From a bacterium (lineage in GTDB: Bacteria; Hinthialibacterota; Hinthialibacteria; Hinthialibacterales; Hinthialibacteraceae), in the NCBI GenBank assembly GCA_041946805.1, contig JBHGBC010000008.1:1-64000 (forward strand): a stretch of DNA of 64,000 nt. The letters run 5' to 3'. Position 1 is the first letter of the stretch. Every line of letters begins with the position of its first letter. A model generated the notes under the pieces. That model ran no database searches. It saw nothing but the letters and a program-made list of their open reading frames with translations, and had not been told where the DNA came from. Shown one piece after another: positions 3-61,408 of this stretch. The translations under genes were made by a program, and so were the position numbers.

Positions 3-2744
3 CCGCCCGTTGCTCCACTCGTTGAATTTGTCCGCCACGCCGAGGGCATCCGCCCGGATATCCAACTTTCCATCGGCCACCGTGACCGTGGCGCCTTCCT
101 GGTAGTTGGTGCTTAACGAGGAATCGCTGCCGTATTCCACCGCCCAGGGAGCGGCCAATGCGGAGCCGGTGAATTCATCCTTCTTCTCTTCCACGGTTTC
201 TCCGAACAGCCACAGCTGGTTGGTCACGCTGGTGTCGCCCCGGATGGCTTCGGCTAACGCAACACCCACATCACAGTACCCGTCGAACAGCACAAACTTG
301 GCGCCCGCCGGCGGCGTCACCTTGTAGGTCGCCGTGTTGGACGAAGTGGTCGGATCCAATTTCCAGTAGATCTTGCCGCCCTCCAGCGTTCCGCCGTTGC
401 TGATGTCGGAAATCGTCCCGCTGGGAACGTTTTCCTCGATGATCGGCGTGTAGGTTCCAAATTCCGTCTGCGACTTCAGGGTCACCGTGAAGGGCTGATC
501 CGGAGTAAAGAATCCATCCGCCGTCAACTGGCGGGTCACATTACCGATGCCTTTCACCCGCACCACTTCGATGCGGCCAAAGCCTTCGGGGACATTCGCG
601 CCTGGCAGGGCAAAAACAATCGCGTGTTCACCGCCGGTGATTTCGAACGGTCCCACGGTGCAGAAGTAGAACGCGTTGAAATCCACATTGGGAGCCAACA
701 TTTGACCCTTGAACTTGTTGTCCACGTACACATCGATCGGACAATCGCCATTGCCCCAGGTATTGACGCTCAGGTTCAGGAGAATCACCTGATCGCCTTC
801 CCCCAGATCGAAGGTGTACCGGTACCAGTCACCCGCCGTCATGGTCGCGCTTCCTACTCCCGCGTTGGTATCGCTGGCGCCATGTTCCAACACGACTTCG
901 CCCAGGTCGCGGTAGTCTTCAAACGTGTATGTGGCTCCACGGCCGCCGGTCCCCGTCGTGACATAGAAATCGGCATTGGCCGGGAACTCGAATATCGTGT
1001 CGATGGCGGGGATGGCTGTCCCGCCAGGACGTTCGTAGGGGGTATCGCTGGGAATCCCGTCCATGCCCTGCGCATACCGCACGCCGTAATCGGTCCCGGT
1101 GGGGTATTTCTTCCCGTTCTGCGGGCTGCCGGAGAAGTCGTAGTCGATTGTTTCGCGGTACAGATAGGGCAGTTTGATGCTGATGGCCGTCTCACCCGCG
1201 ATACGCTCCTCGCCCTCGCCCGAATCCACGCTGCCCGAAAACGCCGCCACACGTTCACGTACCAGCCGGGGTGGAAGGGCGTTGTAGGTCAGATCGACGG
1301 ATTGAGTCAGATTGCTGAGCGGCCAAACGACTTCCCCATTGGTCAACACGCCGTTGTTGGATATGCCGGTGGCTGACCATCCATCCGGAAGACCTTCCGT
1401 CACCGTCATGGAGGGGAGCGTGCCAGTCACGCGGACCTGCAGTTTCACTGGAACCGGTGTGTTGGCAACAAATGTGTCCGCGCCGATGTCCCGGCTCACT
1501 TCCGCCCGGTTGGCCGCCATGCCCTGGATGATGAGGTTGTCGATGTAATGAGTGCCGCCCGTTCCACCGTCATGGTTGTAGCCCAGTTGGAAATACCGGG
1601 GTGGATCCACAGTCGGGAAATCCCGCTCATCCACCTTGATCCAGCCGCCCTCGCCACGGTCCTTGTACAGAAAGACGACGTGGTCGCCCGTGATCTCGAA
1701 GCGCAGCCGGTGCGGCTTGGATCCGATCGGCAGGGTCAAGTCTCGCGGTCCTTCGCTGGGAACGGTGTCTGCCAGGTTATAATAGTGGGTATTCTTCCGG
1801 AGAAAATAATTGTAGCGTGTTGAAATGGTGTCCCCCGGTTTGCAGAAGGGCCACACCGAGAACCGGCCGTTGATATTCTCCTGATAGAAGAAATCCAACT
1901 CCACCGTGTAGTTCGTGGGTAGATCTCTGTCTAGCCGGATCCAGTCATCGTCGCCCCCGGAATCGTACCACTCGATACGGCCATTGACCGCCCGGGCCGT
2001 GTTGCCGCCGAAATCCACCCATTCCGGCCAGGCCGTCGAAGGCAGATCACTGCTGGGACTATTGAAGGAGTTGCTGTAGAAGAACAGGCCCTCTCCGATC
2101 ACGTTCAGCACAAAGTTGTCGATGTAATGCACGCCACCCGTGCCGCCGTCATGGTTGTAGCCCAACTGGATATACCGGGGTTCGCTTACGGTCGGGAAAT
2201 CCCGCTCGTCCACCTTGATCCAGGCGCCTTCGCCCCGGTCCTTGTACAAGAACACGACATGATCACCCGTCACTTCGATACGCACCCGGTGCGGCTTGGA
2301 GCCGACGGGAAGGGTCATGTCCCGCGGCCCCTCGCTGGGAACGGTGTCCGCCAGATTGTAGTAATGAGTATTCTTCCGGAGGAAATAATTATAGCGTGTT
2401 GAAATGCTGTCCCCTGGCTTGCAGAAGGGCCACACCGAGAACCTTCCGTTGATGTTCTCCTGGTAGAAGAAATCGAACTCGTAACTGTACCGCGGGCCCA
2501 GTTCGATGTTCAGCCGGATCCAGTCGTCATCACCACCGGAATCGTACCACTCGATCCGGCCGTTGACCGCCCGGGCCGTATTTCCCCCGAAGTCGACCCA
2601 CTCGGGGTACGCCTCGCTGACGATGGGGCTGCTGGGATTGTTGAAATCGTTGGTGTATTTCACCACCGCCTGACTCGCGGGAATCCACCCAAGACTCAGC
2701 AGCACCACGGCAAGTACGCCGATATACAACCTTTTGGTAATCAT
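3..2744 (-). CDS. Large secreted multi-beta-sandwich protein, paralog 1 (3' end beyond window edge; missed by ORF track)
   Basis: Manual translation from ATG 2744 (RBS GGAGGAGG) gives MITKRLYIGVLAVVLLSLGWIPASQA|VVKYTNDFNNPSS..., open to position 3. It is colinear with the 1094-aa protein at 3015..6299 and has two 193-aa tandem repeats. Confidence 0.92.
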   Translation of the reverse strand, partial: MITKRLYIGVLAVVLLSLGWIPASQAVVKYTNDFNNPSSPIVSEAYPEWVDFGGNTARAVNGRIEWYDSGGDDDWIRLNIELGPRYSYEFDFFYQENINGRFSVWPFCKPGDSISTRYNYFLRKNTHYYNLADTVPSEGPRDMTLPVGSKPHRVRIEVTGDHVVFLYKDRGEGAWIKVDERDFPTVSEPRYIQLGYNHDGGTGGVHYIDNFVLNVIGEGLFFYSNSFNSPSSDLPSTAWPEWVDFGGNTARAVNGRIEWYDSGGDDDWIRLDRDLPTNYTVELDFFYQENINGRFSVWPFCKPGDTISTRYNYFLRKNTHYYNLADTVPSEGPRDLTLPIGSKPHRLRFEITGDHVVFLYKDRGEGGWIKVDERDFPTVDPPRYFQLGYNHDGGTGGTHYIDNLIIQGMAANRAEVSRDIGADTFVANTPVPVKLQVRVTGTLPSMTVTEGLPDGWSATGISNNGVLTNGEVVWPLSNLTQSVDLTYNALPPRLVRERVAAFSGSVDSGEGEERIAGETAISIKLPYLYRETIDYDFSGSPQNGKKYPTGTDYGVRYAQGMDGIPSDTPYERPGGTAIPAIDTIFEFPANADFYVTTGTGGRGATYTFEDYRDLGEVVLEHGASDTNAGVGSATMTAGDWYRYTFDLGEGDQVILLNLSVNTWGNGDCPIDVYVDNKFKGQMLAPNVDFNAFYFCTVGPFEITGGEHAIVFALPGANVPEGFGRIEVVRVKGIGNVTRQLTADGFFTPDQPFTVTLKSQTEFGTYTPIIEENVPSGTISDISNGGTLEGGKIYWKLDPTTSSNTATYKVTPPAGAKFVLFDGYCDVGVALAEAIRGDTSVTNQLWLFGETVEEKKDEFTGSALAAPWAVEYGSDSSLSTNYQEGATVTVADGKLDIRADALGVADKFNEWSNGR

Positions 2745-3014: not shown

Positions 3015-6000
3015 CTAGAACAACATCCACCCCTCCACGTCCGTGAACGGATTGATGGTGCTCAGGGTGAAATACTCGTACACCGCTTCGGCGAAGTTAT
3101 CCGCGCTGGAGACCTTCGCGAACAAGCCGACGCGGGTGGGCGTGCGCGTCTCGGTCACCGGCGCGCCGACCAGCTGCCAGGAGCGGTTGGGCAACTGGGC
3201 GCTGAAGATCAGCTCGTTGCCCCGTTTGGTCACGGCGAGCGTCGCCTGGACGTTACCGGCCATCATAGAGTCGATCCAGTCGTATTCGTCCGTGAAATTG
3301 TGATACGACAGGATGCCATTCGTTCCCTTGTTGGTCAGTTCCACCCGCAGGTCGCCGCCGTAGAATCCGAACAGGTATTCATCGCCGGTGACATCCGTGT
3401 CGTTCGCCTGGTTGTACGCCACCATCAGGCCGGCTTGATACCCGGTCCACGTGAGGACGTCCTTCAGGGTGCATTTCGCCTCGACGCGCCAATCGCCCGT
3501 GGGCAGGTCCGTCCGCAGGATCATGGGCGCGCGGCGTCCATTGGCCCATTCGTTGAATTTGTCCGCGTCGCCGAAGGGATCGATGCGCAGGTCCAAGGCC
3601 CCGTCGGCCACCGTGGCCGTAACCCCTTCCTTATAGTCGGTCGAAAGGGAGGGATCGCTGCCGTATTCCAGCGTCCAGGGCGCGGCCAGCGCGGAACCCG
3701 TGAACTCGTCCTTCTTGTCTTCGGTGGATTCGCCGAACAGCCACAACTGGTTGGTGACGCTGGTATCTCCGCGGATGGCTTCCGCCAGGGAGAGGCCCAC
3801 GTCGCAATAGCCGCTGAACAGCACGAACTTCACGCCCGCCGGCGGCGTTACCTTATAGGACGCCGTGGTGGACGAGCTGGTCGGATCCAGTTGCCAGTAA
3901 ATCTTGCCGCCTTCCAGCACTCCGCCGTTGCTGATGTCGCTGATCGTCCCCTGGGGAACGTTTTCCTCGATGATCGGTGTGTAGGTCCCGTAGTCCGCCT
4001 GCCCCTTCAGGGTCACCGTGAATGGCTTATCGGGTTCGAAGAATCCGTCCTGGGTCAACTGGCGGGACACGTTGCCGATGCCTTTCACCCGCACGACTTC
4101 CAGGCGGCTGAACATGGCCGGCGGGGGCGCGAGGGGGCACGCAACAACGATGGAATGCTCGCCGCCGCTGACCTCGAACGGGCCCACCGAGTACAGGCTG
4201 AATTGGTTGGCGGGAAACACCTCCATCCCGATTTCGCCCTTGAACTTGTTATCGACGTAGATGTCGGTGTACACCGTCGTCACGCCGGCGAAATTGTCCG
4301 CCGCGTGCCAGCTGTTGAGCCAGAAGTTGAGGATGATGACCTGGTTGCCCTCGCCGAGATCGAAGGTGTAACGGAACCAGTCGCCCGCGTCGAGGCTGCC
4401 CAGGTTGCCGCGGGTATCGCTGGCGCCGGTCTCCAGCCAAGCCTCCCCTTCATCCCGGTAGCCGGCCAGGGTATAAGCCTCGCTCAGGAAGGTGCTCATT
4501 ACGGGCGACTCTTGGTGGAAGTCGGCGTTGGCCGGGAATTCGAATACCGTATCGAGGGCGGGAACCGTCGTGCCGTCGCCGGGCCGGACATAGACCACGT
4601 CGCTGGGAACGCCGTTCATGCCTTGGGCGTAGCGCACTCCGTAATCCGCTCCCGTGGGGTATTTTTTGCCATTCTGCGGGCTGCCGGAGAAGTCGTAGTC
4701 GATCGCTTCACGGTACAAGTAGGGCAGTTTGATGCTGACGGCCGTCTCGCCCGCGATGCGCTCCTCGCCCTCGCCCGAATCCACGCTGCCCGAGAATCCG
4801 GCCACGCGCTCGAAGATCAACCGGGGCGGAACCGCGTCATAGGTGAGGTTTACCGATTGTGACAGATTGTTGATCGTCCAGACGATCTGGCCGTCCGTCA
4901 CCATGCCGCCGTTGGAAATATTGGCGGCGGACCATCCATCCGGCAGGCCTTCGGTCACGGTCAAGGACGGGAGCGTGCCGGCCACGAGCACCTGCAATTT
5001 TACAGGTACCGGGGTATTGGCCACGAAATTGTCCGCGCCGATGTCCCGGCTCACTTCCGCCCGGTTTTCCGACATCCCCTGGATGATCAGATTGTCAACA
5101 TAATGCACACCGGCCGTGCCGCCGTCATGGTTGAACCCCAGTTGGAAATACCGGGGTGGTTCCACAGTGGGAAAATCCCGCTCGTCCACTTTGATCCAGC
5201 CGCCCTCGCCTTGGTTCTTGTACAAGAACACGACATGGTCGCCGGTCACCTCGAACCGCAGCCGGTGAGGTTTGGAGCCAATCGGCAGGGTCATGTCCAC
5301 CGGACCTTCACTGGGGATCGTGTCCGCGCCATTGAAATAATGGGTGTTTTTCCGCAGGAAGTAATTGTGGCGTTCGAAAATGCCGTCCCCCGGCTTGCAG
5401 AAAGGCCATATCGAGAACCGCCCGTTGACATCCGCCTGGTAGAAGAAATCCATCTCGATCGTATAGTTCGTGGGCAGCTCCATGTCCAGCCGGTACCAGT
5501 CGTTGTTGTCCCCGGAACTGTACCATTCGAAGCGGCCGTTCGCCATCCGGGCCGCGTTGCCGCCGAAATCCACCCATTCCGGATAGGCATCCTGGGGAAT
5601 GTCGCTGCTGGGAGCGTTGAAATTGTTGCTGTAGAAGAACAGGCCTTCGCCGATGACGTTCAACACGAAATTGTCGATGTAATGCACCCCCGCCGTGCCG
5701 CCATCATGGTTGTAACCCAACTGGATGTAACGGGGCTCGTCCACTTTCGGGAAGTCCCGCTCGTCCACCTTGATCCACGGGCCTTCGCCCTGGTTCTTGT
5801 ACAAGAAGATGACATGATCGCCCGTGACTTCGAACCGGAGCCGGTGGGGTTTGGATCCGGCCGGAAGCGTCAAATCCCGGGGTCCTTCGCTGGGGATGGT
5901 GTCCGCCCCGTTGAAGTAATGCGTGTTTTTCCGCAGGAAATAATTATGCCGCTCGAAAATGCTGTCTCCCGGCTTGCAGAAGGGCCATACCGAGAATCGG

Positions 6001-6299
6001 CCGTTGATGTCCGCCTGGTAAAAGAAATCGAACTCGAAGCTGTACCGCGGGCCGAGCGGCATGTCCAACCGGATCCAATCGTTGTTGTCGCCGGAATCGT
6101 ACCATTCGATCCGCCCGTTGACCGCCCGGGCCGTATTGCCCCCGAAATCGATCCATTCGGGGTACGCCTCGCTGACCACGGGACTGCTGGGATTGTTGAA
6201 GTCGTTCGTGTACTTCACGGCCGCGTACGCCGAGCCGCACAATCCCCCGCCGAGGAGCATGGTAAGAGTCACTCCATACCAAATCCACTTGGCTTTCAT
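3015..6299 (-). CDS. Large secreted multi-beta-sandwich protein, paralog 2 (2x ConA/LamG-like repeats, Ig-like, CBM6/35-like and C-terminal jelly-roll domains)
   Basis: 1094-aa ORF with signal peptide (AYA|A) and RBS GGAGGAGG. It has two 193-aa repeats, a GDWFRYTF CBM-like motif and ends TDVEGWMLF. Fold assignments are inferred. Confidence 0.9.
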   Translation of the reverse strand: MKAKWIWYGVTLTMLLGGGLCGSAYAAVKYTNDFNNPSSPVVSEAYPEWIDFGGNTARAVNGRIEWYDSGDNNDWIRLDMPLGPRYSFEFDFFYQADINGRFSVWPFCKPGDSIFERHNYFLRKNTHYFNGADTIPSEGPRDLTLPAGSKPHRLRFEVTGDHVIFLYKNQGEGPWIKVDERDFPKVDEPRYIQLGYNHDGGTAGVHYIDNFVLNVIGEGLFFYSNNFNAPSSDIPQDAYPEWVDFGGNAARMANGRFEWYSSGDNNDWYRLDMELPTNYTIEMDFFYQADVNGRFSIWPFCKPGDGIFERHNYFLRKNTHYFNGADTIPSEGPVDMTLPIGSKPHRLRFEVTGDHVVFLYKNQGEGGWIKVDERDFPTVEPPRYFQLGFNHDGGTAGVHYVDNLIIQGMSENRAEVSRDIGADNFVANTPVPVKLQVLVAGTLPSLTVTEGLPDGWSAANISNGGMVTDGQIVWTINNLSQSVNLTYDAVPPRLIFERVAGFSGSVDSGEGEERIAGETAVSIKLPYLYREAIDYDFSGSPQNGKKYPTGADYGVRYAQGMNGVPSDVVYVRPGDGTTVPALDTVFEFPANADFHQESPVMSTFLSEAYTLAGYRDEGEAWLETGASDTRGNLGSLDAGDWFRYTFDLGEGNQVIILNFWLNSWHAADNFAGVTTVYTDIYVDNKFKGEIGMEVFPANQFSLYSVGPFEVSGGEHSIVVACPLAPPPAMFSRLEVVRVKGIGNVSRQLTQDGFFEPDKPFTVTLKGQADYGTYTPIIEENVPQGTISDISNGGVLEGGKIYWQLDPTSSSTTASYKVTPPAGVKFVLFSGYCDVGLSLAEAIRGDTSVTNQLWLFGESTEDKKDEFTGSALAAPWTLEYGSDPSLSTDYKEGVTATVADGALDLRIDPFGDADKFNEWANGRRAPMILRTDLPTGDWRVEAKCTLKDVLTWTGYQAGLMVAYNQANDTDVTGDEYLFGFYGGDLRVELTNKGTNGILSYHNFTDEYDWIDSMMAGNVQATLAVTKRGNELIFSAQLPNRSWQLVGAPVTETRTPTRVGLFAKVSSADNFAEAVYEYFTLSTINPFTDVEGWMLF

Positions 6300-6353: not shown

Positions 6354-6642
6354 GCCATGAATTATTCATAAAGGATAATCCGAGGAGGAATCAAGGGGAA
6401 AAGGGTATATTTAGCTGGATATCTGATTTTTTCACCATGCATTTGGCAAAAATCAAGCGGTCAATCCATTGATTTTTATATAAAATTGGTAAAATCAATA
6501 GATTATGCAATGGATGCGAATAAAGTTCGTAAAAGCGATTCCAAAAATTATGGCTGGATGATTATCTAGTTATGAAGAATAGGCAGGCTACCATTCCGCG
6601 TGTTTTATCATGCGTTCGCGGCGGCCGCGGGTTGGATCCGCG

Positions 6643-7845
6643 TCATCCGCGCTCGGCGAGGCCGTAGCGTTGCTGGAGCTTGTTGAAGCGGCCGCGGACT
6701 TTTTCGACATACCGCTTGCCGGCGGGCGGCACACCGTCCCGTTCCACCCGGCCGGGACCCACGTTGTAGGCCGCCAAGGCGGTGTCGAGATCGTCAAACA
6801 TTTGGATCAGCATGCTCATGTATTGCGTGCCGCCCTTGATGTTCTCCTCGGGATCGAAGGGATCCCGCACCTCGAGGTCCTGGGCGGTCATGGGCATCAA
6901 CTGCATCAGGCCCTGCGCGCCCTTGGAGGAGACTGCGTCCTTGTTCCAGGCGGATTCAGTATCGATCAGCGCCCAGACCAGGAAGGGATCCAGGCTGTTT
7001 TCCCGGGCGTATTGATCGACCAGTTCAAGGAATTCGAGGGGCGGGATCTTCTCTCCCCGGGTGTGGGCTTTTTGAATCGTGGCCAGAAATCGACCGGCTT
7101 TCAGGTCGATCATCTTGGGGGCGGCTTTTTTCGTGTATTGATGCTGGGCCAGGGCGGAGGGACCTTGCAGGAGGGTTTGTTTCCGCATGGCCAGCAGTTG
7201 TTGTTGGACTTTTTTCCAATCCTCCGGATCCACGCCGTATTTTTCCGCCAAGAGAAGATGACGTTCCGCCTGGGTCAGGTCGAGGTGGTTGATCCGGTCG
7301 CGGGCCAGGGAGAGGTGAAACTTGCCCCGCAGGCTTCCCCAGAATTCGTTTTCGTCCTTGTAGCGCCGCTCGAGTTCACTGATTCCCGCCTGGATGCCCT
7401 GCCGCTGGATCACCCGTTCGATCTCTTCTTGTTCCTGTGCCAGGCGTTGTTGATCTTTCTGATTCAACAAGTCTTGAATTTGTTGGAGGGCCTCCTCGCT
7501 TTCCGCCCGCCAAGCCGAGTATTGGGCGGCTTGGTGGAGAAAGAATTGGGCGCGATCCAGCTTGTTGCGCCGCAGGAGTTGCCGCCCCAGAATCAGCTCG
7601 CTTTCTCCCGGGGCGGAATGAATGACCTTGCTGACCGAATGGCGCATCACGGAAACCGTTCCGCCGACGCTTTCGACATTGATCGACTGGTTGGACTCGA
7701 AGGTAATACAACCTTCAATCACCTGCCCGGACTTCATGCATACAGCATCCTGCATTTCCGCCTTTTTCGCCCAGACCGGGCCGGGAGACACGGCGAGGCA
7801 CAGAATCAACAGACAGGAACGATGAATGGCGAGGATCCTCATCAT
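6643..7845 (-). CDS. Lytic transglycosylase (SLT domain) with N-terminal helical region
   Basis: SLT motifs ALIDTESAW, SSKGAQGLMQLMP, ALAAYNVG; signal peptide. Start 7845 overlaps the DUF58 stop (ATGA). Confidence 0.9.
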   Translation of the reverse strand: MMRILAIHRSCLLILCLAVSPGPVWAKKAEMQDAVCMKSGQVIEGCITFESNQSINVESVGGTVSVMRHSVSKVIHSAPGESELILGRQLLRRNKLDRAQFFLHQAAQYSAWRAESEEALQQIQDLLNQKDQQRLAQEQEEIERVIQRQGIQAGISELERRYKDENEFWGSLRGKFHLSLARDRINHLDLTQAERHLLLAEKYGVDPEDWKKVQQQLLAMRKQTLLQGPSALAQHQYTKKAAPKMIDLKAGRFLATIQKAHTRGEKIPPLEFLELVDQYARENSLDPFLVWALIDTESAWNKDAVSSKGAQGLMQLMPMTAQDLEVRDPFDPEENIKGGTQYMSMLIQMFDDLDTALAAYNVGPGRVERDGVPPAGKRYVEKVRGRFNKLQQRYGLAERG

Positions 7846-8753
7846 AAGTGGTGGTGAGTTTTCAGCCTTCTCTGAAGATATTCGCGCAGCACCACTTCCA
7901 GGGGCTGGCGGGTCGTTACGGGATTGTAATCGATGCCCTGTTCCAGGCATCCTTCCCGGTATCGGTTCAAAAAATCCTCCACCCGCTCCCGGTACATTTT
8001 CCGCAGCCTCCGGGGGGCGGTCAGTAACGGATCGGCGTCCCCCTCCAGGGGATGAAACTCGACCGCACCGGAATAGGGCAGTTCAATCTCTTCCGGCGTC
8101 AAAATGTGGAACACGAGCACTTCCTGGTGCCGTTTGCGCAGCAGGGTTAGACCGCTCAAGACCTGGGCGGGATCCTCGATCAGATCCGACACGAGGATCA
8201 CCATGCCCCGTTTTTTCAGAAATTCGCCGAGGTTGGAAAGCACCCGGCCGGTGGCGGATAGTTCGTTGGTGGTTAGCGCGGACGCCAGGGTTTCGAGCAG
8301 GGTTCCCCACTGGTCGGAACGCAGCCGGGGAGGGACATACGCGCGGATCTCGCTGTCGTAGACCGCCAAGCCCACGCTATCCCCTTGAGAAATGATCAGA
8401 TACGAAAGGGCGGCGGTGAGTTGCCGCGCATAGTCCAGTTTGGACAGGGTGGATTCGCCGAAGCGCATGGAGCCGCTCATGTCGATGAGGAGGGTGGCGC
8501 GCAGGTTGGTGTCTTCCTCGAACAATTTGACATGGAAACGGTCGGTTTTGGCGTAGGCGCGCCAGTCGATGTGCCGCAATTCATCGCCCGGATGATAGGG
8601 CCGGTGTTCGCTGAATTCGATGTTCCGCCCCATGAAATGGCTGTGATGCAATCCGGCGGCCGCGCCTTCCACGGCCTGGCGGGCGATCAGCTCCAATTGC
8701 GTGATGGAGGATATGACTATCGGGTCTACCAGCTGTTCGGTCATAATGGTCAA
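7842..8753 (-). CDS. DUF58 domain protein (MoxR-associated family)
   Basis: EFSEHRPYHPGDELRHIDWRAYAK, LLIDMSGSM and ILVSD motifs. Confidence 0.93.
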   Translation of the reverse strand: MTIMTEQLVDPIVISSITQLELIARQAVEGAAAGLHHSHFMGRNIEFSEHRPYHPGDELRHIDWRAYAKTDRFHVKLFEEDTNLRATLLIDMSGSMRFGESTLSKLDYARQLTAALSYLIISQGDSVGLAVYDSEIRAYVPPRLRSDQWGTLLETLASALTTNELSATGRVLSNLGEFLKKRGMVILVSDLIEDPAQVLSGLTLLRKRHQEVLVFHILTPEEIELPYSGAVEFHPLEGDADPLLTAPRRLRKMYRERVEDFLNRYREGCLEQGIDYNPVTTRQPLEVVLREYLQRRLKTHHHL

Positions 8754-13462: not shown

Positions 13463-15418
13463 ATGGTTATCGATGCCTATCGACTGGATCCGCATGGAAA
13501 TCAATCTTCCCTCGCGTCTCCTCTGACCGACCGAGTCGACCAAGCCATCCAGGATTCCCACCGTTATTTCCTCTCCATCCAACATTCCGCCGGGTATTGG
13601 GTCTTCCCCCTCGAAAACGACGCGACCATTGTGGCGGATTATATCATGATGTGCCATTACATCGGCCGCGTCGATCCCGTCCGCCAGCAAAAGGCGGTCC
13701 GCTGGCTGTTGGACATGCAATTGGAGGATGGGGGGTGGAACATCTACCACGGCGGCCCCAGCGAACTGAACGCCACGGTGAAATGCGCCTTCGCCCTGCA
13801 ATGCGCGGGGTATGACAACCGCTTCGAGCCGCTGCGGCGGGCGGAAGAGTGCCTGCTGCGCCTGGGCGGCCTGGACCGGGTGAACAGCTACACCCGTTTT
13901 TACCTGGGGCTGTTCGGCCAGTACCCGTGGAACAAGCTGGTCTCGATGCCGCCGGAACTGATGTTCCTGCCCACATCGTTTTACTTCAATATTTATGAAA
14001 TCTCGTCCTGGTCGCGGGCCATCGTGGTCCCCATGTGCATCATCTGGTCGCACAAACCCATCAAGACGCCCCCGCCCACGGTGGATTGCAGCGGCTGGTG
14101 GGTGCGGAACCAGGCGCGCCGGAACCGGCGCTACCTGCGGCGGACGTTTTCGTGGCAGACCTTCTTCATGACCATGGACGCCATCCTGAAACGGTCGGAC
14201 CGGTTTTTCGCGCCCTTCACCCGGCGGGAAGCCTTGCGCCGGGCGGAATCGTGGATGGTGGAGCACATGTCGCGGGGGGGCGGACTGGCGGCCATATATC
14301 CGGCCATGTTGAATTCCATCATCGCTCTCGATTGCCTCGGGTACACCTTCGAACACCCCGTCTTTCAAGAAGCCTACAACGAGTACATGAAGCTTATGAT
14401 GGAGGAAGAGGACCGGTTGTGGTTTCAGCCCTGTTTTTCTCCCACCTGGGATTCGGCGATGGTCATGGCCGCGCTGCAGCGGTCGGGCATGCCGGGCAGC
14501 CATCCCGCCATCCAACGCTCGGCCGAGTGGCTGGTCAACCAGGAAATCCAGATCCGGGGCGACTGGCAAGTAAAAAATCCTTACGGTCCGGCCGGCGGCT
14601 GGGCGTTTGAATACAACAACGATTTCTACGCGGACACCGACGACACCGCCATGGTGCTCATGGCGCTGCGGACCGCCCGCATGCCCCTGGACGCTCAGCG
14701 CGAGGCGGCCGTCCAGCGGGGAATCGAGTGGCTCCTCTCCATGCAAAGTTCGGACGGCGGCTGGGGGGCGTTCGACGTGGACAACAACAAGGAAGTCCTC
14801 AACCTGATCCCCTTCGCGGACCACAACGCCCTGCTGGATCCCAGCACGGCGGATGTCACCGCCCGCATCCTCGAGATGCTGGGCGAATTCGGATACAACT
14901 CGCATTTCTCCCCCGCGACGCGGGCCATCCTGTTTTTGCGGAACCAGCAGGAAAAGGATGGTTCGTGGTACGGGCGCTGGGGCGTCAATTACATTTACGG
15001 GACCTGGCAGGTGATCACCGGCTTGCGCAAGATCGGGATACCTCACACCGATCCCGCCATCCAACGCGGCGTGGATTGGCTGCTGCGCTACCAGCACGAG
15101 GACGGCGGCTGGGGTGAAAACTGCTCCACCTACCACGACCCCGGCCAGCGGGGGAAAGGCAATTCGACTCCCTCGCAGACCGCCTGGGCGCTCATGGGGC
15201 TGATGCATGGCGGCCGAGTGAATGATCCCGCGGTGGAACGGGGATTGCGGTATCTGCTCGATACGCAGAGGCCCGATGGCGCTTGGAACGAGGAAGAGTT
15301 CACCGGCACAGGCTTCCCGCGGGTTTATTATTTACGCTATACTGGGTATCGTAATTATTTTCCCTTGATGGCTTTTGGCCTTTACCGCTCTTTTCTCCGG
15401 GGATTGCCGGACCGGTAG
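13463..15418 (+). CDS. shc: Squalene-hopene cyclase
   Basis: DTDDTA catalytic motif, several QW repeats (QxxDGGW/GSW), GTGFP...YLRY..Y. The start could be as early as 13418. Confidence 0.97.
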   Translation: MVIDAYRLDPHGNQSSLASPLTDRVDQAIQDSHRYFLSIQHSAGYWVFPLENDATIVADYIMMCHYIGRVDPVRQQKAVRWLLDMQLEDGGWNIYHGGPSELNATVKCAFALQCAGYDNRFEPLRRAEECLLRLGGLDRVNSYTRFYLGLFGQYPWNKLVSMPPELMFLPTSFYFNIYEISSWSRAIVVPMCIIWSHKPIKTPPPTVDCSGWWVRNQARRNRRYLRRTFSWQTFFMTMDAILKRSDRFFAPFTRREALRRAESWMVEHMSRGGGLAAIYPAMLNSIIALDCLGYTFEHPVFQEAYNEYMKLMMEEEDRLWFQPCFSPTWDSAMVMAALQRSGMPGSHPAIQRSAEWLVNQEIQIRGDWQVKNPYGPAGGWAFEYNNDFYADTDDTAMVLMALRTARMPLDAQREAAVQRGIEWLLSMQSSDGGWGAFDVDNNKEVLNLIPFADHNALLDPSTADVTARILEMLGEFGYNSHFSPATRAILFLRNQQEKDGSWYGRWGVNYIYGTWQVITGLRKIGIPHTDPAIQRGVDWLLRYQHEDGGWGENCSTYHDPGQRGKGNSTPSQTAWALMGLMHGGRVNDPAVERGLRYLLDTQRPDGAWNEEEFTGTGFPRVYYLRYTGYRNYFPLMAFGLYRSFLRGLPDR

Positions 15419-15620
15419 GCGAAATCCGGGAGAGCGGCTGTCGAGGAGAGGGACCGGCCCCGGCCGGTCCAAGGATTCATCCTATCAGAACATAGATCGT
15501 ATCCGTAATTACCAATCATGGGTCGGGATTGAGACTGGGATGGAAACCATGACGGCGTCCCATGGGAATGGCTGAAAATCGCATGGTCAAGGGCCGTATT
15601 GTACTCCTGGAGGTAAGAGT

Positions 15621-16631
15621 GTGAGATTCCCGGTCGCATTGTATAGCACCACCTTGAAGTATCTGATCAAACAATACCTGGCTGGCCATAAACGCTTTCC
15701 CCTGGTCTTGATGCTCGAACCGACGCTGCGCTGCAATCTCGATTGCATCGGCTGCGGGCGGATCGCCGAGTATCACGGTCATCCCGTGCCCGACCTGACC
15801 GTGGAGGAATGCCTGGCCGCGGTGGACGAATGCGGCGCCCCCATCGTTTCCGTCTGCGGCGGCGAGCCCCTGGTTTACAAACCCATCGACATCCTGATCC
15901 GCGAACTCATCGCCCGCAAAAAGTACGTCTATCTCTGCACCAACGCCATGTTCCTGGACCGCTACTGGGACCGCATCCCGCCCCACAAACGGTTCGCTCT
16001 CAATATCCATCTGGACGGCATGGAAAAAGGCCACGACTGGGCCGTGGACCGGCCGGGCACCTTCAAGCTGGTCAGCCGGATCCTCGACGAGGCCAAGGCC
16101 CGCGGCTACCGCGTCAACACCAACACCACCGTTTTCCATGGCTCCAATCCCGAGGAAATCAAGGAGATGCTCGAATACCTGCATCACAAGGGCGTGGACG
16201 GCATTCTCCTCTCCGGCGCGTATCCCCAAAACGGGGAAAAAGGCAAGGCCAGCCTGGAGCGGCAGGAACTGGAAGACCTGTTCAAGCAAATCCTCGGGAC
16301 CAACGGCGAGGCCGGCAAGTACAAACTGACCAACTCGCCCCTCTACATCGATTTCCTCCGCGGCTTGCGCGAAATCCCCTGTTCGCCCTGGGCCAGCCCC
16401 AACCGCACCGTGAAGGGCTGGAAGGGACCCTGTTACGTCCTGACCGACGGCTATTACAAAACCTTCCAGGAACTGATGGAATCCACCGATTGGGATTCGC
16501 TCGGCCCCGGGCGCGACCCCCGCTGCGCGAATTGCAAAATCCATTCCGGATTCGAGCCGACCATCGCCTTCGGCCGCAACTGCAATTGGAGAGACCATCT
16601 CCAGATGATCAAGTGGAACCTGTCGAAGTAA
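15621..16631 (+). CDS. hpnH: Adenosylhopane synthase, radical SAM
   Basis: RFPLVLMLEP..RCNLDCIGCG and C-terminal CSPW..P..GW..PCY...DPRCANC..HSGFEPT; lies directly after shc. Confidence 0.93.
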   Translation: MRFPVALYSTTLKYLIKQYLAGHKRFPLVLMLEPTLRCNLDCIGCGRIAEYHGHPVPDLTVEECLAAVDECGAPIVSVCGGEPLVYKPIDILIRELIARKKYVYLCTNAMFLDRYWDRIPPHKRFALNIHLDGMEKGHDWAVDRPGTFKLVSRILDEAKARGYRVNTNTTVFHGSNPEEIKEMLEYLHHKGVDGILLSGAYPQNGEKGKASLERQELEDLFKQILGTNGEAGKYKLTNSPLYIDFLRGLREIPCSPWASPNRTVKGWKGPCYVLTDGYYKTFQELMESTDWDSLGPGRDPRCANCKIHSGFEPTIAFGRNCNWRDHLQMIKWNLSK

Positions 16632-46284: not shown

Positions 46285-47064
46285 TTAGTGCTGTGCTTCC
46301 CAATCCGCGGGAGTCACATTCGCCGGACCTTCCGACAGATACAAATCGAGTACGGCCCGGCCGGACAGCGCTTCGTTATAAATGCGGGCGTTGTCCAAGT
46401 AACCCTTGAACATTTCACCCTCTGCTTTTTCATTGTCTCCACCCATGAACAAGGGTTGAGGGTTATTGAGTTCCAGGGTCTGGGGTTGTGTGCTCACCAC
46501 CACTCCATTCCGGTAATAGATCAGCAACGGGCCTTTTTTGACGATGACATGATGCACCCACACACCAATGGGGGGGTCCGCGTAATCCAAGTTGTCGGTG
46601 CCCAACGTGTTGGCGTGGAATTCAAATTTGGTCGGCGTGAATTTGATGAACTCGCGCGGAGAAAATTCAGCGGCATTAATGTCCTTCCGGTTTCCAAAGA
46701 TAATATTGTTCCCCGCGTTTCCAGCTTCGACTTTGACCCAGATGGCCCAGGTGAAGTTGGTATCGAATTTCATCGCGGGAACGATGTCCTTGCCCACTTG
46801 CACGTACGCGCCGGCCGCGGTCCCGCCGAAACTGATCACGGAGCCCCGCGCGGGATCCTGCGCCCAGACCGAACCGCCTGCGCCCAATCCTTTCGTGGGG
46901 TTGACAATGGTTCCATCCTTGCCCTGGCCGCTGGAGTCGGCGGCCTTTTCGCCCGTACCTTCGTCAAATTTCCAAAATCCGATCAAATCGGCCTGCGCGC
47001 TCACCGAAAACACCAAGCCACCCAGAACCAATCCAATCACGATCCACGATCCGTTTCTCTTCAT
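46285..47064 (-). CDS. Secreted LamG/concanavalin A-like domain protein
   Basis: LIGFWKFDEGTG..AADSSG, WVHHVIV and FKGYLDNARIYNEALS motifs; signal peptide AQA|D. Confidence 0.9.
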   Translation of the reverse strand: MKRNGSWIVIGLVLGGLVFSVSAQADLIGFWKFDEGTGEKAADSSGQGKDGTIVNPTKGLGAGGSVWAQDPARGSVISFGGTAAGAYVQVGKDIVPAMKFDTNFTWAIWVKVEAGNAGNNIIFGNRKDINAAEFSPREFIKFTPTKFEFHANTLGTDNLDYADPPIGVWVHHVIVKKGPLLIYYRNGVVVSTQPQTLELNNPQPLFMGGDNEKAEGEMFKGYLDNARIYNEALSGRAVLDLYLSEGPANVTPADWEAQH

Positions 47065-48645: not shown

Positions 48646-49395
48646 TCAATACAAATCCCATCCCGGCACGTCCGCGGGAGGCTGGGCGAAGGTATAGACG
48701 ATGCCGATGTCGTTGGTGGCGGGATCGGGATCGGGCATCCATTCCGCCGAGGTGTAATTCTCGTCCTCGGTCTCGAAAACGAGCACGAAATCGCTATAGG
48801 CGGGATCAAAGAGGGGCGTTTCGTCCGGATTGGACAGCCCCGGCTGGCCGTCTTCCATGTTTTTATAGACCAGGTCGCGGCGGATGGCGAATTCCACGTC
48901 CGTGACATTGCCTTCCATGGGCGCCACGTCCGCGTACGCGAAGGTGCCCCACAGATTCTCATCGCTGGCCGGATCGATGGTGCAAACCCAGTCTCCGCAC
49001 CGCTGGTCGAATATCTGCCGTCCCTGGATGTTGAACTCCGAGCCGAAGTTCGCCGGCCAGCGGTGGCCGGTCGTGCTGTCCATGTCGGTGTCGAAGCCCG
49101 TGTTCAGGTACCAAAAGAAATCCCCGTAGGGTTGAGGACTGGTAAACTCGATCCGGAAATAAAAAAAGTCCTTGTCGTTGGCCAGGTAGGCCGCGGCGAA
49201 ATCGTAATGCAATCCGCCGTCGCCGCTGGGATCCTGGCAGGCTGGTCCGATGCCGGTCCAGTCGCTCACATCACCGTCCACTTGAATGGTCCGGTAAACC
49301 GGCGTCGCGGTAATGATGCCATAATCGTCCTGCGCCAAACCCGGGAGGCAAGCCAATCCCAGGAACAGGATGAAAATACCCACTTTTCGCCGCAT
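48646..49395 (-). CDS. Secreted hypothetical protein (DOMON/CBM9-like beta-sandwich)
   Basis: RBS GGAGG before ATG 49395, signal peptide, IQVDGDVSDW...YLAND..FYFRI; ends ADVPGWDLY. Confidence 0.8.
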   Translation of the reverse strand: MRRKVGIFILFLGLACLPGLAQDDYGIITATPVYRTIQVDGDVSDWTGIGPACQDPSGDGGLHYDFAAAYLANDKDFFYFRIEFTSPQPYGDFFWYLNTGFDTDMDSTTGHRWPANFGSEFNIQGRQIFDQRCGDWVCTIDPASDENLWGTFAYADVAPMEGNVTDVEFAIRRDLVYKNMEDGQPGLSNPDETPLFDPAYSDFVLVFETEDENYTSAEWMPDPDPATNDIGIVYTFAQPPADVPGWDLY

Positions 49396-55969: not shown

Positions 55970-56743
55970 ATGGTCTCACTGATACTCATCAATCAACGTG
56001 GAGGCGTGTTTCAACATCTCATCAATAGTTCGATTCTCGCGCTGGCCATTTACCTGGCCCTCCTGGTCCTTTCCATTCTTTCCTGGGGAATCATGATCAA
56101 GAAGTTCGCCGATTTCCGCAAGGAACGCAAGCAATCCCGGGAATTCCGCCGCTTGTTCAACGAATTGGAAGGCAATATCGTGGCTCTGTCCCAGGAGGGC
56201 ATCCTGCCCGCCAACAGCCCCGCCCGGTTGTTCGTTTCCGCCTACGAGGAATTGCGGTTGTGGGCCACGCTGGACCGCGACCAGAACCGGATCATTGCCG
56301 AGCGGCCGGTGGTGCCCGCCCTGGAGCGGACCCTGGACCGGGCCATCGAGATGGAAAAAGACCGCTGGGAGCGGGGAACGACGTTTTTAGCCACCATCGC
56401 CAGCGTTTCGCCCCTGTTGGGGCTGTTGGGAACGGTATGGGGAGTGTTCCTCTCGTTCCAGGAGATGGGCGCGGTGGGGGCCACGAGCCTGGAGACCGTC
56501 GCGCCGGGGATTTCGGAAGCGTTGTTGACCACGGTGGGCGGGTTGCTGGTGGCCATTCCGGCCGTGTTCGCCCATAACTGGATTCTGCGCGCGGTGCGGA
56601 GCATCGAGACGCAATTGGAAACGTTCGCCAGCGAAATCATCAATCACTTTGACCGGCAAATCGTCGTGGGCGCGTTCAGCAACACGACCCGCCTCTCCGC
56701 CCCCCGGCCGGTCAGCCGGAGGAGAACCGGTGGCCCTGCGTAA
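55970..56743 (+). CDS. tolQ: TolQ/ExbB proton channel
   Basis: LATIASVSPLLGLLGTVWG and VAPGISEALLTT.GL.VAIPA. Confidence 0.9.
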   Translation: MVSLILINQRGGVFQHLINSSILALAIYLALLVLSILSWGIMIKKFADFRKERKQSREFRRLFNELEGNIVALSQEGILPANSPARLFVSAYEELRLWATLDRDQNRIIAERPVVPALERTLDRAIEMEKDRWERGTTFLATIASVSPLLGLLGTVWGVFLSFQEMGAVGATSLETVAPGISEALLTTVGGLLVAIPAVFAHNWILRAVRSIETQLETFASEIINHFDRQIVVGAFSNTTRLSAPRPVSRRRTGGPA

Positions 56744-57143
56744 GATTCGGTACCGTAAAGAAGCCCTGGCCGATGTGAACATGACCAACCTCATTGACAT
56801 CATGATGGTGTTGCTCATCGTATTCATCCTGGTGTCCAATTTTGTCCAAACCGGCTTGAACATCCGCGTCCCCCAGGTCAGCTACGTCGAAGCCATGGGC
56901 AAGGAGCAAATCGTCGTCAGCGTGGATCCCAACGGGCGGAAGACGCTCAACGGCCAGCCGGTGAACGAAACCGACCTGCCGGCCAAGCTGACCGAGTTGA
57001 AAAACAAATTCCCCGAGGAGGCCTTGTTCATCAACGCGGACAAGCTGACTTCCTTCGGTGACGTGGCCGAGGTGATCGCCGTTTCCGCCAAGGTCGGCTT
57101 CCAGTCGGTCAATATTCCAGCCATCTACAAGCCCCGGAGTTGA
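56730..57143 (+). CDS. tolR: TolR/ExbD
   Basis: VNMTNLIDIMMVLLIVF and INAD motifs; RBS GGAGGAG before GTG 56730. Confidence 0.9.
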   Translation: MALRKIRYRKEALADVNMTNLIDIMMVLLIVFILVSNFVQTGLNIRVPQVSYVEAMGKEQIVVSVDPNGRKTLNGQPVNETDLPAKLTELKNKFPEEALFINADKLTSFGDVAEVIAVSAKVGFQSVNIPAIYKPRS

Positions 57144-57165
57144 ATTTGCGGAGGAAGTCCGTCAC

Positions 57166-58038
57166 ATGAACGACCGGACGGCGTATATCGTCTCCACCAT
57201 CCTGCACCTCGCGGTATTTCTGTACCTGACGGTCAACCTGCGCTCCCACTATCAATATAGGCCGGGCTCCTACATCTCCATGAACATCGCCCAAGCGCAA
57301 TCCGCTCCGGGGCGGCTCACGACTCCACCGCCCGCCCCGAAAAAACCGGAGCCCGAACCCGAATCCGAGCCCGAGCCCCCCAAGCCGCAAAAAATTGAGA
57401 AGAAACCTCCCAAGCTCACCGAGGACACGATCAGCCAATTGCGGGAAAAATTGAGCAGCACGCCGACCAAAAAGCCCACGGTGAAGCCCACGGACAAGAA
57501 TACTCCGACCCCCCGGCCGACCCCCCGGCCGACGCCGCCTCCCAAGCGTACGCCGACGCCCCGCCCCGCGGGGGAACAGCCGACCCCCACGCCGGACCTC
57601 CCCCGCATCCCCTTGTCGGAAATCGAGTCACAGGTCCCGGCGCCGGCGGACAATGCCGCGGCGCCGGGAGTCAGCGGCGCGCCCATCGGCTCCGGCACGG
57701 GTGAGTACATGACCCAGATTTTCGGCGATCCGAATGCCCCGCACGATTTCACCGGCTATGCCATGATACTCAACAAGCAGTTGTACCGGGCCTGGCTGCA
57801 GCCAACCATCCGGCCGCCCGAATACCGCGATTTCATCACCGTGGTTTCGTTTGCCGTCTATCAGGACGGCAGCATCAGCGATATCTTCTTGGAAGAGAGT
57901 TCCGGATGGCCGGCGCTGGATAAGTCCGTCCTGGAGGCCGTGCAACGCGCCAGCCCCCTGGAACGGCTGCCGATGACATACACCGCTTCCAGCGTGCGCG
58001 TGCTGGTGCCTTTTATCATGCCCAAGAAGACCTATTGA
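57166..58038 (+). CDS. TolA/TonB family protein
   Basis: SxxLH TM motif, Pro-rich linker and SSG...LD...L.AV C-terminal domain. Confidence 0.85.
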   Translation: MNDRTAYIVSTILHLAVFLYLTVNLRSHYQYRPGSYISMNIAQAQSAPGRLTTPPPAPKKPEPEPESEPEPPKPQKIEKKPPKLTEDTISQLREKLSSTPTKKPTVKPTDKNTPTPRPTPRPTPPPKRTPTPRPAGEQPTPTPDLPRIPLSEIESQVPAPADNAAAPGVSGAPIGSGTGEYMTQIFGDPNAPHDFTGYAMILNKQLYRAWLQPTIRPPEYRDFITVVSFAVYQDGSISDIFLEESSGWPALDKSVLEAVQRASPLERLPMTYTASSVRVLVPFIMPKKTY

Positions 58039-58099
58039 GGCGCCGGCGGCGCTCCGGGGGAAATCCCCCGTAAAATACGCCCCGGGACTGCACCGGCAA

Positions 58100-58129
58100 T
58101 TGCACCGGTTTACGGTCCCCTGCTACAAT
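58100..58129 (+). promoter_or_regulatory. Sigma70 promoter upstream of tolB
   Basis: TTGCAC-N18-TACAAT with extended TG. Confidence 0.55.
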
Positions 58130-58196
58130 GGAACTTGTAAATGACCGCATTCAATCAACTCGATTGCATTTCACCACGACAGAAGGTTGAGGGAAA

Positions 58197-59618
58197 ATGA
58201 TGAAACGGATCCTGATATTGTGGCTGGCCGTCACTGGTGGTTTCAGCGCCCTGGCCCTGGCTCCGGCCCCCGCCCCGGCCGGGGAATCGACCTTGTCCAT
58301 CCCCCCGATCATGGGCGGGCTCGAGAAGCCCAAGATGCTGATCGTCCAACCGGCGGTCCGCGAGCCGTTCGCCGGGCAGGAACAAACCGTGCAGGAGCTC
58401 AACGAGTTGTTCCTCTTCGATCTGGGCTTTTCCGATGCGTTCCGGGTGTTCGCGGAAACCCCGCCGGCCGCCTTCCTCCAGCGGCAGGACGTGGAACGCA
58501 ACAACATCTCGTACGAGGATTGGCGGCGCCTCGATGTCAACGGGGTGATGATGGACTACATCGTGAAAAGCGAACTGGTTCCCCGCGGCCCGGGCGTCTT
58601 CGAGCTCGACCTGATGGTGTACGATCTGGTTGACGGCGTCCGGGTCATCGGCAGGGCCTACGGCGGGCCGCCCCATGAGCCCTTCGCCCGCAAGAACCTC
58701 CGCCGCGCCGGCCACAAGGCCACGGCCGAGATCATCTCCAGCCTGACCCAAGGCCAGGTGAAGCCCATCACCGAAACCCGCTTCGCGTTCGTCAATTCCA
58801 ACACCGCCAAGAAAATCAAGGAAATCTTCGTGATCGACTACGACGGATGGAAAGACAGCGTCCAGCAGATCACCTTCTTCAACTCCGTGACCAATTTCCC
58901 CGACTGGTCCCCCGACGGCAACGAACTGGCCTATATCTCCTTCAAAAACAACTGGCCGGACGTGTTCGTTCACAACTTGGCCCAGGGGAAAGTGGTTCCC
59001 GCCGCGCAGTTCAAGGGGACCAACAACACACCCCGCTGGCTGCCGGACGGGCGCAATCTCATCTTCTCCATGTCCGCGTACGGCAATCCCGAGCTGAGCA
59101 TCATTCCCAAGGAAGGCACCAAACAGCCCCGGCGGCTGACCAACAACAACTGGCCGGAAGTGTCCCCCGACGTGTCGCCGGACGGGGCGCGGGTCGCCTT
59201 CGTCTCCAACCGCGTGGGGAGTCCGCAGATTTACATCATGGATATGGACGGATCCAACACGCAGCGCATTTCCTACGTCGAGCGGAAATGCGAATCCCCC
59301 TTCTGGTCGCCGGTCCCCGTGGGCGGCGAATACCGGATCGCCTTCTCGGGCTACTATGACAACCTTCAAAGCGACATCTATACCGTCCGCCCGGACGGAT
59401 CGGACCTGCAGATGCTCACCGAGGGCAAATTCGAGAACCTGAATCCGACCTGGTCGCCCGACGGCCAGTACATCGCTTTTTCATCGAACCGGCTGGGGAA
59501 GCACGAGATCTTCATCATGCCCAGCGACCCCACCCGGCTGCTGCCCGACGGAAAGAAGTATTACCGCGTCACCAGCCTGGCGGGAGAGAATGTCGCGCCG
59601 TCCTGGTCGCCGAATTAA
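58197..59618 (+). CDS. tolB: TolB beta-propeller protein
   Basis: Signal peptide, TolB-N-like domain, DYDG and repeated P.WSPDG (PD40) motifs. Confidence 0.93.
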   Translation: MMKRILILWLAVTGGFSALALAPAPAPAGESTLSIPPIMGGLEKPKMLIVQPAVREPFAGQEQTVQELNELFLFDLGFSDAFRVFAETPPAAFLQRQDVERNNISYEDWRRLDVNGVMMDYIVKSELVPRGPGVFELDLMVYDLVDGVRVIGRAYGGPPHEPFARKNLRRAGHKATAEIISSLTQGQVKPITETRFAFVNSNTAKKIKEIFVIDYDGWKDSVQQITFFNSVTNFPDWSPDGNELAYISFKNNWPDVFVHNLAQGKVVPAAQFKGTNNTPRWLPDGRNLIFSMSAYGNPELSIIPKEGTKQPRRLTNNNWPEVSPDVSPDGARVAFVSNRVGSPQIYIMDMDGSNTQRISYVERKCESPFWSPVPVGGEYRIAFSGYYDNLQSDIYTVRPDGSDLQMLTEGKFENLNPTWSPDGQYIAFSSNRLGKHEIFIMPSDPTRLLPDGKKYYRVTSLAGENVAPSWSPN

Positions 59619-59649
59619 CGCCAATTTAACGAAAGGACCGTTGGAATTC

Positions 59650-59678
59650 TTGTCATTCCGCGGTTGGGCGGGTACGAT
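59650..59678 (+). promoter_or_regulatory. Sigma70 promoter upstream of pal
   Basis: TTGTCA-N17-TACGAT, which implies a leader of about 260 nt. Confidence 0.55.
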
Positions 59679-59946
59679 ATAGGGTGTTGTCAGCATGGTC
59701 CGGCATCTTGGGATCGCGAACCGGCCGCGGAGGGAAATCCGCCGCCAAAGCCTCTTCACTCCCCGTTGGACATTGGAATGGTCTCCTTGACGATCGCCCT
59801 GGGCTGCCCATGCGGAACACGTGTGATTCAATAGATCTACCGATTTTGTTGATTTTATGCTAAAGAAAGTCTTCTTCATCCGGGCGACAGAAAACATGAT
59901 GAGCTTCATCCATCTTGTAATTTAAAAAATCGGGAGGTTCTGCTTC

Positions 59947-61215: not shown

Positions 61216-61408
61216 GTCATACGCTCCCGCATGGGGGGATTGATTCGCGCATCGAATTCGATGCATGAAATACCGCCGCCGGCCCGCGATCACCTCCTCC
61301 CCCCGGGATGGTTTATTGTATCATCGAATAGAGAAAACTTGTTCCGTGCGGCGGGCAATCCCGCGCGGAGGGAAGATGGAACCATACACATGGGAGTGGA
61401 TCAATCAC

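Follow-up and report, generated by a model that had tools for sequence, protein, structure and literature searches.

The known C-terminal sorting signals compared here need a membrane helix or a folded domain, except for the PilC strand, which is carried by one or two proteins. The BamA beta-signal is a terminal aromatic residue on the amphipathic last strand of a beta-barrel. The C-terminal domain (CTD) of type IX secretion systems (T9SS; TIGR04183/PF18962) is a beta-sheet domain of 40-80 residues with motifs B, D and E that follows a Pro/Thr linker on many Sec substrates unrelated to one another, and the shortest CTDs described in the available sections of PMC11969387 contain 40-55 residues. 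The PilC tails contain about 10 residues with a conserved Trp (available part of PMC13711793), and PilC docks on PilK through a Trp-containing tail of ten residues, which adds a strand (bioRxiv 10.64898/2026.02.14.705861 and PMC13711793, in the parts available). In the window analysed here, a stretch of 64,000 nucleotides (G000:C294:1-64000) from the genome of an uncultured bacterium of the phylum Hinthialibacterota, secreted proteins were found to end in a soluble tail of nine residues with the core pattern T-x-V-x-D/E-W-x-L-Y/F, and the same tail was found on about 150 genes of the genome, which is about 3% of the proteome. By the tests run, the tail is a signal of new build that lies outside the T9SS, CTERM, beta-signal and PilC families, and it is apparently unpublished. 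It is very probably a sorting or docking tag of some kind; the export or anchoring signal proposed by the initial annotation was supported to that extent, and nothing was found in favour of the S-layer docking proposed with it.

Occurrence of the tail in the genome and in the window

The genome (G000) contained 6.70 Mb in 315 contigs and was 96.8% complete. The genes were called for this analysis, and signal peptides were assigned by a crude heuristic that flags one third of all genes. A 12-position profile, trained on the tail genes of G000 itself and used with a threshold of 9, was found to reach the threshold at the last position in 117 of the 4415 closed genes against 0.2 expected from internal windows (72 per 1.54 million), with a clear gap in the scores; among non-coding frames the threshold was reached by 6 of 44,767. 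The set grew to 150 tails when 1-3 extra terminal residues were allowed and one match with eight membrane helices was excluded. The tails contained the consensus P-T-[APG]-V-x-[DE]-W-x-L-[YF], with a W in 90% and a V or I in 94% of them. Extra terminal residues were present in 33 of the 150, and Q or H was found instead of the aromatic residue in 21%.

A signal-peptide-like start was found in 127 of the 146 complete tail proteins against 1399 of 4197 other genes, so that the enrichment on secreted proteins, which had been proposed for checking, was obtained. A fixed regular expression, independent of the training of the profile, was found to match 79 of 1154 signal-positive and 18 of 2480 signal-negative genes. 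No membrane helix after the signal peptide was found in any of 117 tail proteins, in agreement with the earlier description of a tail without a helix or a basic cluster. The tail was confirmed as real and genome-wide, beyond chance.

Three tailed proteins had been proposed for the window (Table 1). Two of them are clear, and the third, the LamG protein at 46285..47064, fails as a case alone because its best profile score lies below the threshold. Judged from its sequence relatives it is probably a degenerate variant, since a W near the C-terminus is retained by most of its nearest orthologues (at 4-5 residues from the end in 6 of P0018-P0024, e.g. GASNWELMK). The W of the tail of the 48646..49395 protein was conserved in 16 of 16 aligned homologues. 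The gene at 3015..6299 was missed by the signal heuristic, and its protein was found to contain no match in the NCBIfam scan and nothing informative in the Pfam scan. The gene at 3..2744 could be followed through its last 56 bases, which overlap two other contigs, and the tail stands at the end of both candidate continuations, on C201 and on C176, as the initial annotation had asked to be checked. The 13 other window genes with a signal-like start and no membrane helix, the LamG gene included, scored below 1, and the earlier remark that the secreted GH36-, EEP- and heparinase-like enzymes of the window do not carry the tail was upheld. Two further tails were found on the same contig outside the window.

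Table 1. Tail-bearing genes of the window, their tails and the truncated paralogue
Feature	Position in window	Strand	Description	Tail
Gene	3015..6299	-	1094-aa signal-peptide protein, repeated lectin-like blocks	present; ends INPFTDVEGWMLF before the stop
Tail FTDVEGWMLF	3018..3047	-	directly 5' of stop 3015-3017	profile score 25.6
Gene	48646..49395	-	249-aa signal-peptide protein	ends QPPADVPGWDLY before the stop
Tail PADVPGWDLY	48649..48678	-		profile score 23.6
Gene	46285..47064	-	259-aa LamG (PF13385) protein	probably degenerate; ends GPANVTPADWEAQH before the stop
Probable degenerate tail ANVTPADWEAQH	46288..46323	-		profile score 0.8 at best (threshold 9)
Gene	3..2744	-	paralogue of 3015..6299, 75% identity	runs off contig end

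Cargo, relation to known signals and taxonomic range

The 150 tail proteins were found to form 85 single-linkage sequence clusters, or 109 by terminal domain, and paralogues at 77-80% identity occur with and without the tail. Both results argue against the tail being the last strand of one shared domain, which the initial annotation had named as an alternative. The 32 tail proteins that were scanned contained LamG, CBM9, CotH/LTD and S15 peptidase domains and two MtrC-like cytochromes, and one of them, a molybdopterin-dehydrogenase FAD subunit, looks cytoplasmic and is an apparent false positive. The cargo looks surface-exposed from the LamG, CBM9, CotH/LTD and MtrC-like members of this sample, and its domains are not barrels, as had been claimed. 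The two tail-bearing MtrC/MtrF-like multiheme cytochromes are encoded at G000:C242:328-2142 and 6409-8361. A pyruvate-phosphate-dikinase nucleotide-binding domain with a signal-like start and the tail was found at G000:C284:2979-5930.

In a CotH family, the tail was found on 70 of the top 98 homologues. Where about 320 residues had been appended, the tail was present at the new C-terminus, and three of the 98, at 41-42% identity, contained a T9SS CTD at the end in place of the tail. Among 16 homologues of the LamG protein at 46285..47064, 3 end in a PEP-CTERM signal above the cut-off and 1 in an IPTL-CTERM-like signal just under it; these four are more distant from the window protein. The tail is shown to be a module bound to the C-terminus that can be exchanged, on homologous proteins, for T9SS and PEP-CTERM signals. 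The search for an existing model of the tail, proposed earlier, was made with 33 tails against NCBIfam and Pfam, and no model was found to match more than one of them; ESM Atlas searches gave unnamed clusters only.

The tail resembles the T9SS CTD in its place after a Pro/Thr linker on many unrelated Sec substrates, in its exchange with the CTD on CotH homologues and in the presence of PorU-like enzymes with His and Cys. It differs from the CTD in its nine residues, which bear out the earlier claim that it is far shorter, in the lack of motifs B, D and E and of any match to a CTD model (TIGR04183/PF18962/PF13860), and in that the three genomes tested gave no SprA, no CTD cargo and no PorZ match over the cut-off. 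The PilC/PilY1 strand is similar in its position at the extreme C-terminus, its length, its conserved Trp, the lack of a membrane helix and the pilin genes nearby; there, one or two adhesins per cell contain W-R-E-hydrophobic, a pattern missing from the tail, whereas here about 150 unrelated proteins contain V-x-D-W-x-L-Y. The PilY1 beta-propeller (PF05567) was found in 0 of 5 genomes, and its control was silent too. The PEP-CTERM and IPTL-CTERM signals (TIGR02595, TIGR04174, PF09721) occupy the same position on homologous LamG proteins, and the one IPTL-like homologue contains a Trp at a similar place, but no PEP, IPTL, GlyGly or LPxTG model was found to match the tail, which contains neither their membrane helix nor their basic cluster. 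The terminal aromatic residue, often present in the tail, recalls the beta-signal; the alternating hydrophobic pattern is missing, extensions and Q/H ends are tolerated, and the cargo is not made of barrels.

The tail was described earlier as lineage-specific, which proved too narrow, since it spans the phylum Hinthialibacterota and recurs in at least one other. A strict DNA pattern, with the reversed pattern as control (0-3 matches per genome), gave 40 matches in G000 and 11-43 in every one of 19 relatives from its family; the counts were 4-23 for 6 further genomes of the order, 1-10 for 9 genomes at a greater distance and 0-1 for 6 outsiders. By direct reading, tails were found on 2 of 293 genes of G028, 2 of 196 of G029 and 0 of 44 of G026, together with dockerin-like ends, which were common on the secreted proteins of the tail-poor families. 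A second DNA pattern, used on 366 outside genomes, gave at most 4 matches, in G092. Signal-peptide proteins of G092, G411 and G365 end in forms like T-A-x-x-D-W-x-L-[YF]-[EQD], and a W-x-hydrophobic-Y-E-stop pattern was found in 50 of 57 genomes of the phylum of G092, which we take to be Sumerlaeota (0-39 matches per genome; controls 0-4). G365 and G211 seem to lie in further phyla, since they are absent from these 57 genomes.

The homologues found carry the names Candidatus Hinthialibacter and Candidatus Omnitrophota/Omnitrophica; OLB16, now placed in Hinthialibacterota, was once placed in Omnitrophota according to the available part of PMC9324843. The terms "C-terminal" and "secretion system" gave no match in the available text of this phylum paper, nor did "pilin" and "C-terminal" in that of PMC8092238. 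A literature search that combined the phyla with sorting terms and used motif strings, and that covered few subscription journals and no supplements, returned no description of the tail.

Candidate readers of the tail

It is plausible, but still tentative, that two conserved PorU-like C25 peptidases read the tail as a pair, cleave it and transfer the protein to a surface anchor. Three C25 proteins were found in G000, two of which (1826 and 1281 aa) are PorU-like in layout with CARDB domains. The C25 family (PF01364) was present in 35 of 35 genomes of the phylum, mostly as two large paralogues, A and B; four well-assembled tail-rich genomes contained a single C25 match each, of the larger type. 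The His and Cys residues were invariant in 14 of 14 aligned paralogue-A sequences and were also present in the rows of B, and both paralogues contained CARDB/Ig-like domains and no CTD of their own. The closest solved structure is that of PorU, 6ZA2 (E 4e-32 by sequence and E 3e-33 by fold), and a C25 domain, a His/Cys dyad and, as predicted by a structure model (pLDDT 84.6), a PorU fold are all found. The tail opens with T in 82, G/A/S in 83 and V/I in 141 of the 150 tails at positions -9, -8 and -7, respectively, followed by the D/E-W part, and this opening is loosely in register with the PorU cut site, for which the consensus PT/GI is given in section 3.5 of PMC11969387.

The C25 peptidases are kept without the usual T9SS cargo and SprA, which were not found in the three genomes tested (G000, G010 and G021). 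For SprA, only matches of 40-50 positions were found in G000 and G021 and none in G010, against full-length matches in two control genomes (889 bits in one); the match of G000 was discarded as a repeat that belongs to a BlaR1-like M56 protein. The FlgD_ig/CTD matches numbered 1, 1 and 1 against 126 and 61 in two control genomes, and among the three genomes and the controls PorZ was over the cut-off in a control genome only. TIGR04183 gave 0 matches with its control silent too, and GldM (TIGR03517), the only motor/ring component searched for among GldK/L/M/N, was found in 0 of 5 genomes with its controls silent too.

The peptidase, as a rule paired, was found in 55 of the 57 genomes from the phylum of G092. 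The two exceptions, G260 (a single contig, 96% complete) and G480, belong to one genus and contained 1 and 0 tail matches, against 20 in a family-mate with the pair. This co-loss lends the peptidases weak support, because it is one event and 11 of the 57 genomes have at most one match with the same pattern. Among the low-match genomes that were read, G472 contained a canonical tail and G453 none in 120 kb.

On the proposed route, the tail proteins would be exported by Sec and folded in the periplasm, and would pass the outer membrane through the secretin of one of the type II or type IV filament machines that are present. The tail would then be bound as an extended strand by the PorU-like pair and cut, most simply after Thr in the PT/GI register, and the protein would be joined by transpeptidation to a lipid or glycan at the surface. 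PorU itself removes the signal of its substrates and passes them on to a lipopolysaccharide.

Several findings weigh against the peptidases as readers. The two proteins scored 212 and 165 bits against a cut-off of 420 for the PorU equivalog (NF033707), and they carry no tail themselves, whereas many homologues from outside bear the signal of their own lineage. The full T-[GAS]-[VI] opening was found in only 39 of the 150 tails and PT in 15, and the Thr position was followed by Pro in 31, by Arg in 18 and by Asp in 8. Since proteases cut X-Pro bonds poorly, not every tail can follow the PT/GI register. The CTD linkers of a KSB1 genome fitted the first half of the tail in 4 of 38 cases against 2.3-3.8% in controls, which is weak (p 0.01-0.06), and PorU cleavage is described as sequence-independent in the available part of PMC4804311. 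The tail is lacking from 28 outside genomes with related peptidases (8 matches against 27 in the control), and G211 contains pilins and such peptidases with no tail in the DNA read. The co-loss is confined to a single genus, and in 320 kb of G260, one of the 61 signal-positive frames still ended in W-x-V-Y. Tail genes are linked to pilins in the genome, no link of this kind was observed for the peptidase genes, and in the loci read no conserved gene of evident sorting function was found to adjoin paralogue A or B. A complex prediction for paralogue A (residues 9-840, alignment A1) with a 32-residue tail gave a score of 0.01 and a mark of 0.32, which counts neither way.

Related C25 loci were observed elsewhere. 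A 1868-aa PorU-like gene lies just beside two NGxxSxG pilin genes and is divergent to them, at about 590,000-599,000 of G411:C1 (L478). In Chloroflexota (L065-L115), a short tail of the x-[YF]-L-P-x-x-x-R type closes many PorU-like C25 proteins and some proteins encoded beside them, and no NCBIfam model matched it in the two proteins scanned. Proteins beside a PorU-like gene in Poribacteria (L100:13379-14152 and L101) end in W-G-x-[LI]-K, with no NCBIfam match in the one scanned.

It is also possible, if doubtful, that the tail stays uncut and docks the protein by joining a type IV filament pilin as an edge beta-strand, the pilin being one of an expanded NGxxSxG family or of a tip complex. By analogy with the C-terminal peptide of PilC/PilY1, lectins and enzymes would be loaded on the filament or pushed out by it. 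G000 contained 133 prepilin-like genes, 114 of which form one GspG/PilA-like family that ends in NGxxSxG. This family contained conserved LTTPVAY, S-x-G-P-D and Y-x-x-[ST]-N-G-x-x-S-x-G-D-I blocks around a variable middle (e.g. L266:2114-2647) and stayed under every named NCBIfam cut-off tested, the generic prepilin motif excepted. Eight secretins were found, and one GspD was above the cut-off with GspK- and GspM-like genes. An operon at G000:C35:8465-17879 with an Amuc_1101/PilM-like gene and a TPR-bearing secretin is a candidate machine for the pilin family and resembles the Akkermansia MUL2 locus as given in the available part of PMC13174399.

A pilin gene lay directly next to 25 of the 150 tail genes, compared with 49 of 930 signal-positive genes outside the tail set (p 5e-6) and 1 of 38 homologues that lack the tail (p 0.03). 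The tail-pilin pairs were co-oriented in 20 of 26 cases, and the adjacency was found also in G028, G029 and G365. The NGxxSxG motif was present in 35 of 35 genomes of the phylum with 24-137 matches each, against 0-1 in 34 outside genomes, and among 366 others it was expanded in no more than 5; tails were seen in three of these, and a C25 match is present in all five. Among 69 non-redundant pilin-bearing metagenome loci, six tails scored at least 9. Pro alternates along the tail (43, 0, 31, 0, 24 and 0 at positions -6 to -1 from the W), as in an edge strand, but extended-strand binding is also expected of a protease with its substrate. Five sixths of the tail genes have no pilin neighbour, pilin and tail counts are uncorrelated within the family (rho -0.24, n=20), and G260 contained 30 pilin matches and almost no tails. 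The adjacency could come from shared sugar-use loci rather than from binding, and it also fits the PorU-like peptidases as readers, provided that the cargo and the pilins of one locus work together. Across 35 genomes the tail density was related to pilin density with rho 0.40 and to C25 count with rho -0.45, and these values, from kin that are not independent, were given no weight.

A giant PilK, judged from its sequence, ends right before the terminal strand of GspK in 30 of 30 loci, as expected of an acceptor that lacks a strand. In most loci of the bacterium's own family, the gene 3' of PilK ends in N-L-[YF]-[FY]-[RK]-E, a PilC-like donor unlike the tail, and the giant PilK was set back as tail acceptor because this neighbouring gene offers the likelier end. 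The H-I-J-K minor-pilin operon at G000:C79:14280-25933 (L262) contains a 2152-aa PilK without the last strand of GspK, followed by a 429-aa secreted protein whose end resembles the donor strand of PilC.

An uncut tail bound by another receptor, namely an outer-membrane barrel (PorV/PorQ-like, BamA or TamA), a scaffold or a periplasmic chaperone, is unlikely. A PorV/PorQ-like barrel was found in 29 of 35 genomes, the residue at the end of the tail is usually aromatic, and the dockerin-like ends that are common in tail-poor families mean that non-covalent docking is in use in the phylum. This barrel stayed below the family cut-off everywhere, 6 tail-bearing genomes from two families gave no match to it, and in 15 other loci it was paired with one tail-less Pro/Thr-rich protein; this pairing and the two families without it made the PorV-like barrel a less favoured reader. 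The extra residues and the Q/H ends are unlike a beta-signal, and the cargo domains are not barrels. The Pro/Thr-rich partner, a secreted protein of about 960 aa followed by the barrel, was found at G000:C259:35206-38088 and C250:3-1466 and in full length at L194:15247-19303. It gave no match in NCBIfam, and the two are possibly a dedicated barrel-cargo pair.

An exosortase was rejected as reader because it was not found in the tail-rich order: PF09721 was present in 0 of 26 genomes of that order and 8 of 35 overall, in a search that did not include sortase and rhombosortase. It is very unlikely that the tail plays no part in sorting and caps the protein for stability, tags it for degradation or is a remnant that gene shuffling has spread, a view that fits the close paralogues without a tail and the few matches on cytoplasmic-looking proteins such as the FAD subunit but not a tail that is kept in two phyla, is mainly confined to signal-peptide proteins, shifts to the new end after an addition and takes the place of known sorting signals on homologues.

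Further observations and significance

Other features were observed in the window and the genome. The window contained, at 61265-64000 (+), a large secreted protein with acidic thrombospondin-like repeats and weak BamM, MtsC and Amuc_1099 matches, in which the repeats are followed by an apparent carboxypeptidase region as read from the sequence. Read from their translations, the genes at 56006-60522 (+) look like a TolQ-R-A-B-Pal cluster and those at 13463-16631 (+) like a squalene-hopene cyclase with a radical-SAM partner. Very large secreted proteins, for which hardly any family match was obtained, form a cluster that is present in two copies, at G000:C259:11939-24069 and C20:5604-13371.

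A wider picture can be drawn, doubtful as a whole, of a stand-alone sortase system in which two PorU-like transpeptidases, freed from T9SS, would anchor about 3% of the proteome by a nine-residue soluble tail, with export by type IV filament machines whose hundred or so variable pilins are co-encoded with the cargo. If this picture is true, the short tails found with PorU-like enzymes in Chloroflexota and Poribacteria would be parallel versions, and a short tail with a C25 sortase would be a general anchoring route beyond Bacteroidota.

Through the tail system, the PorU-like enzymes of genomes that lack type IX secretion acquire a testable role, and the tail could be of use as a tag of very small size for anchoring or display. 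As a nine-residue soluble ending on about 150 proteins, found in at least two phyla, the tail marks the likely surface proteome of these bacteria.

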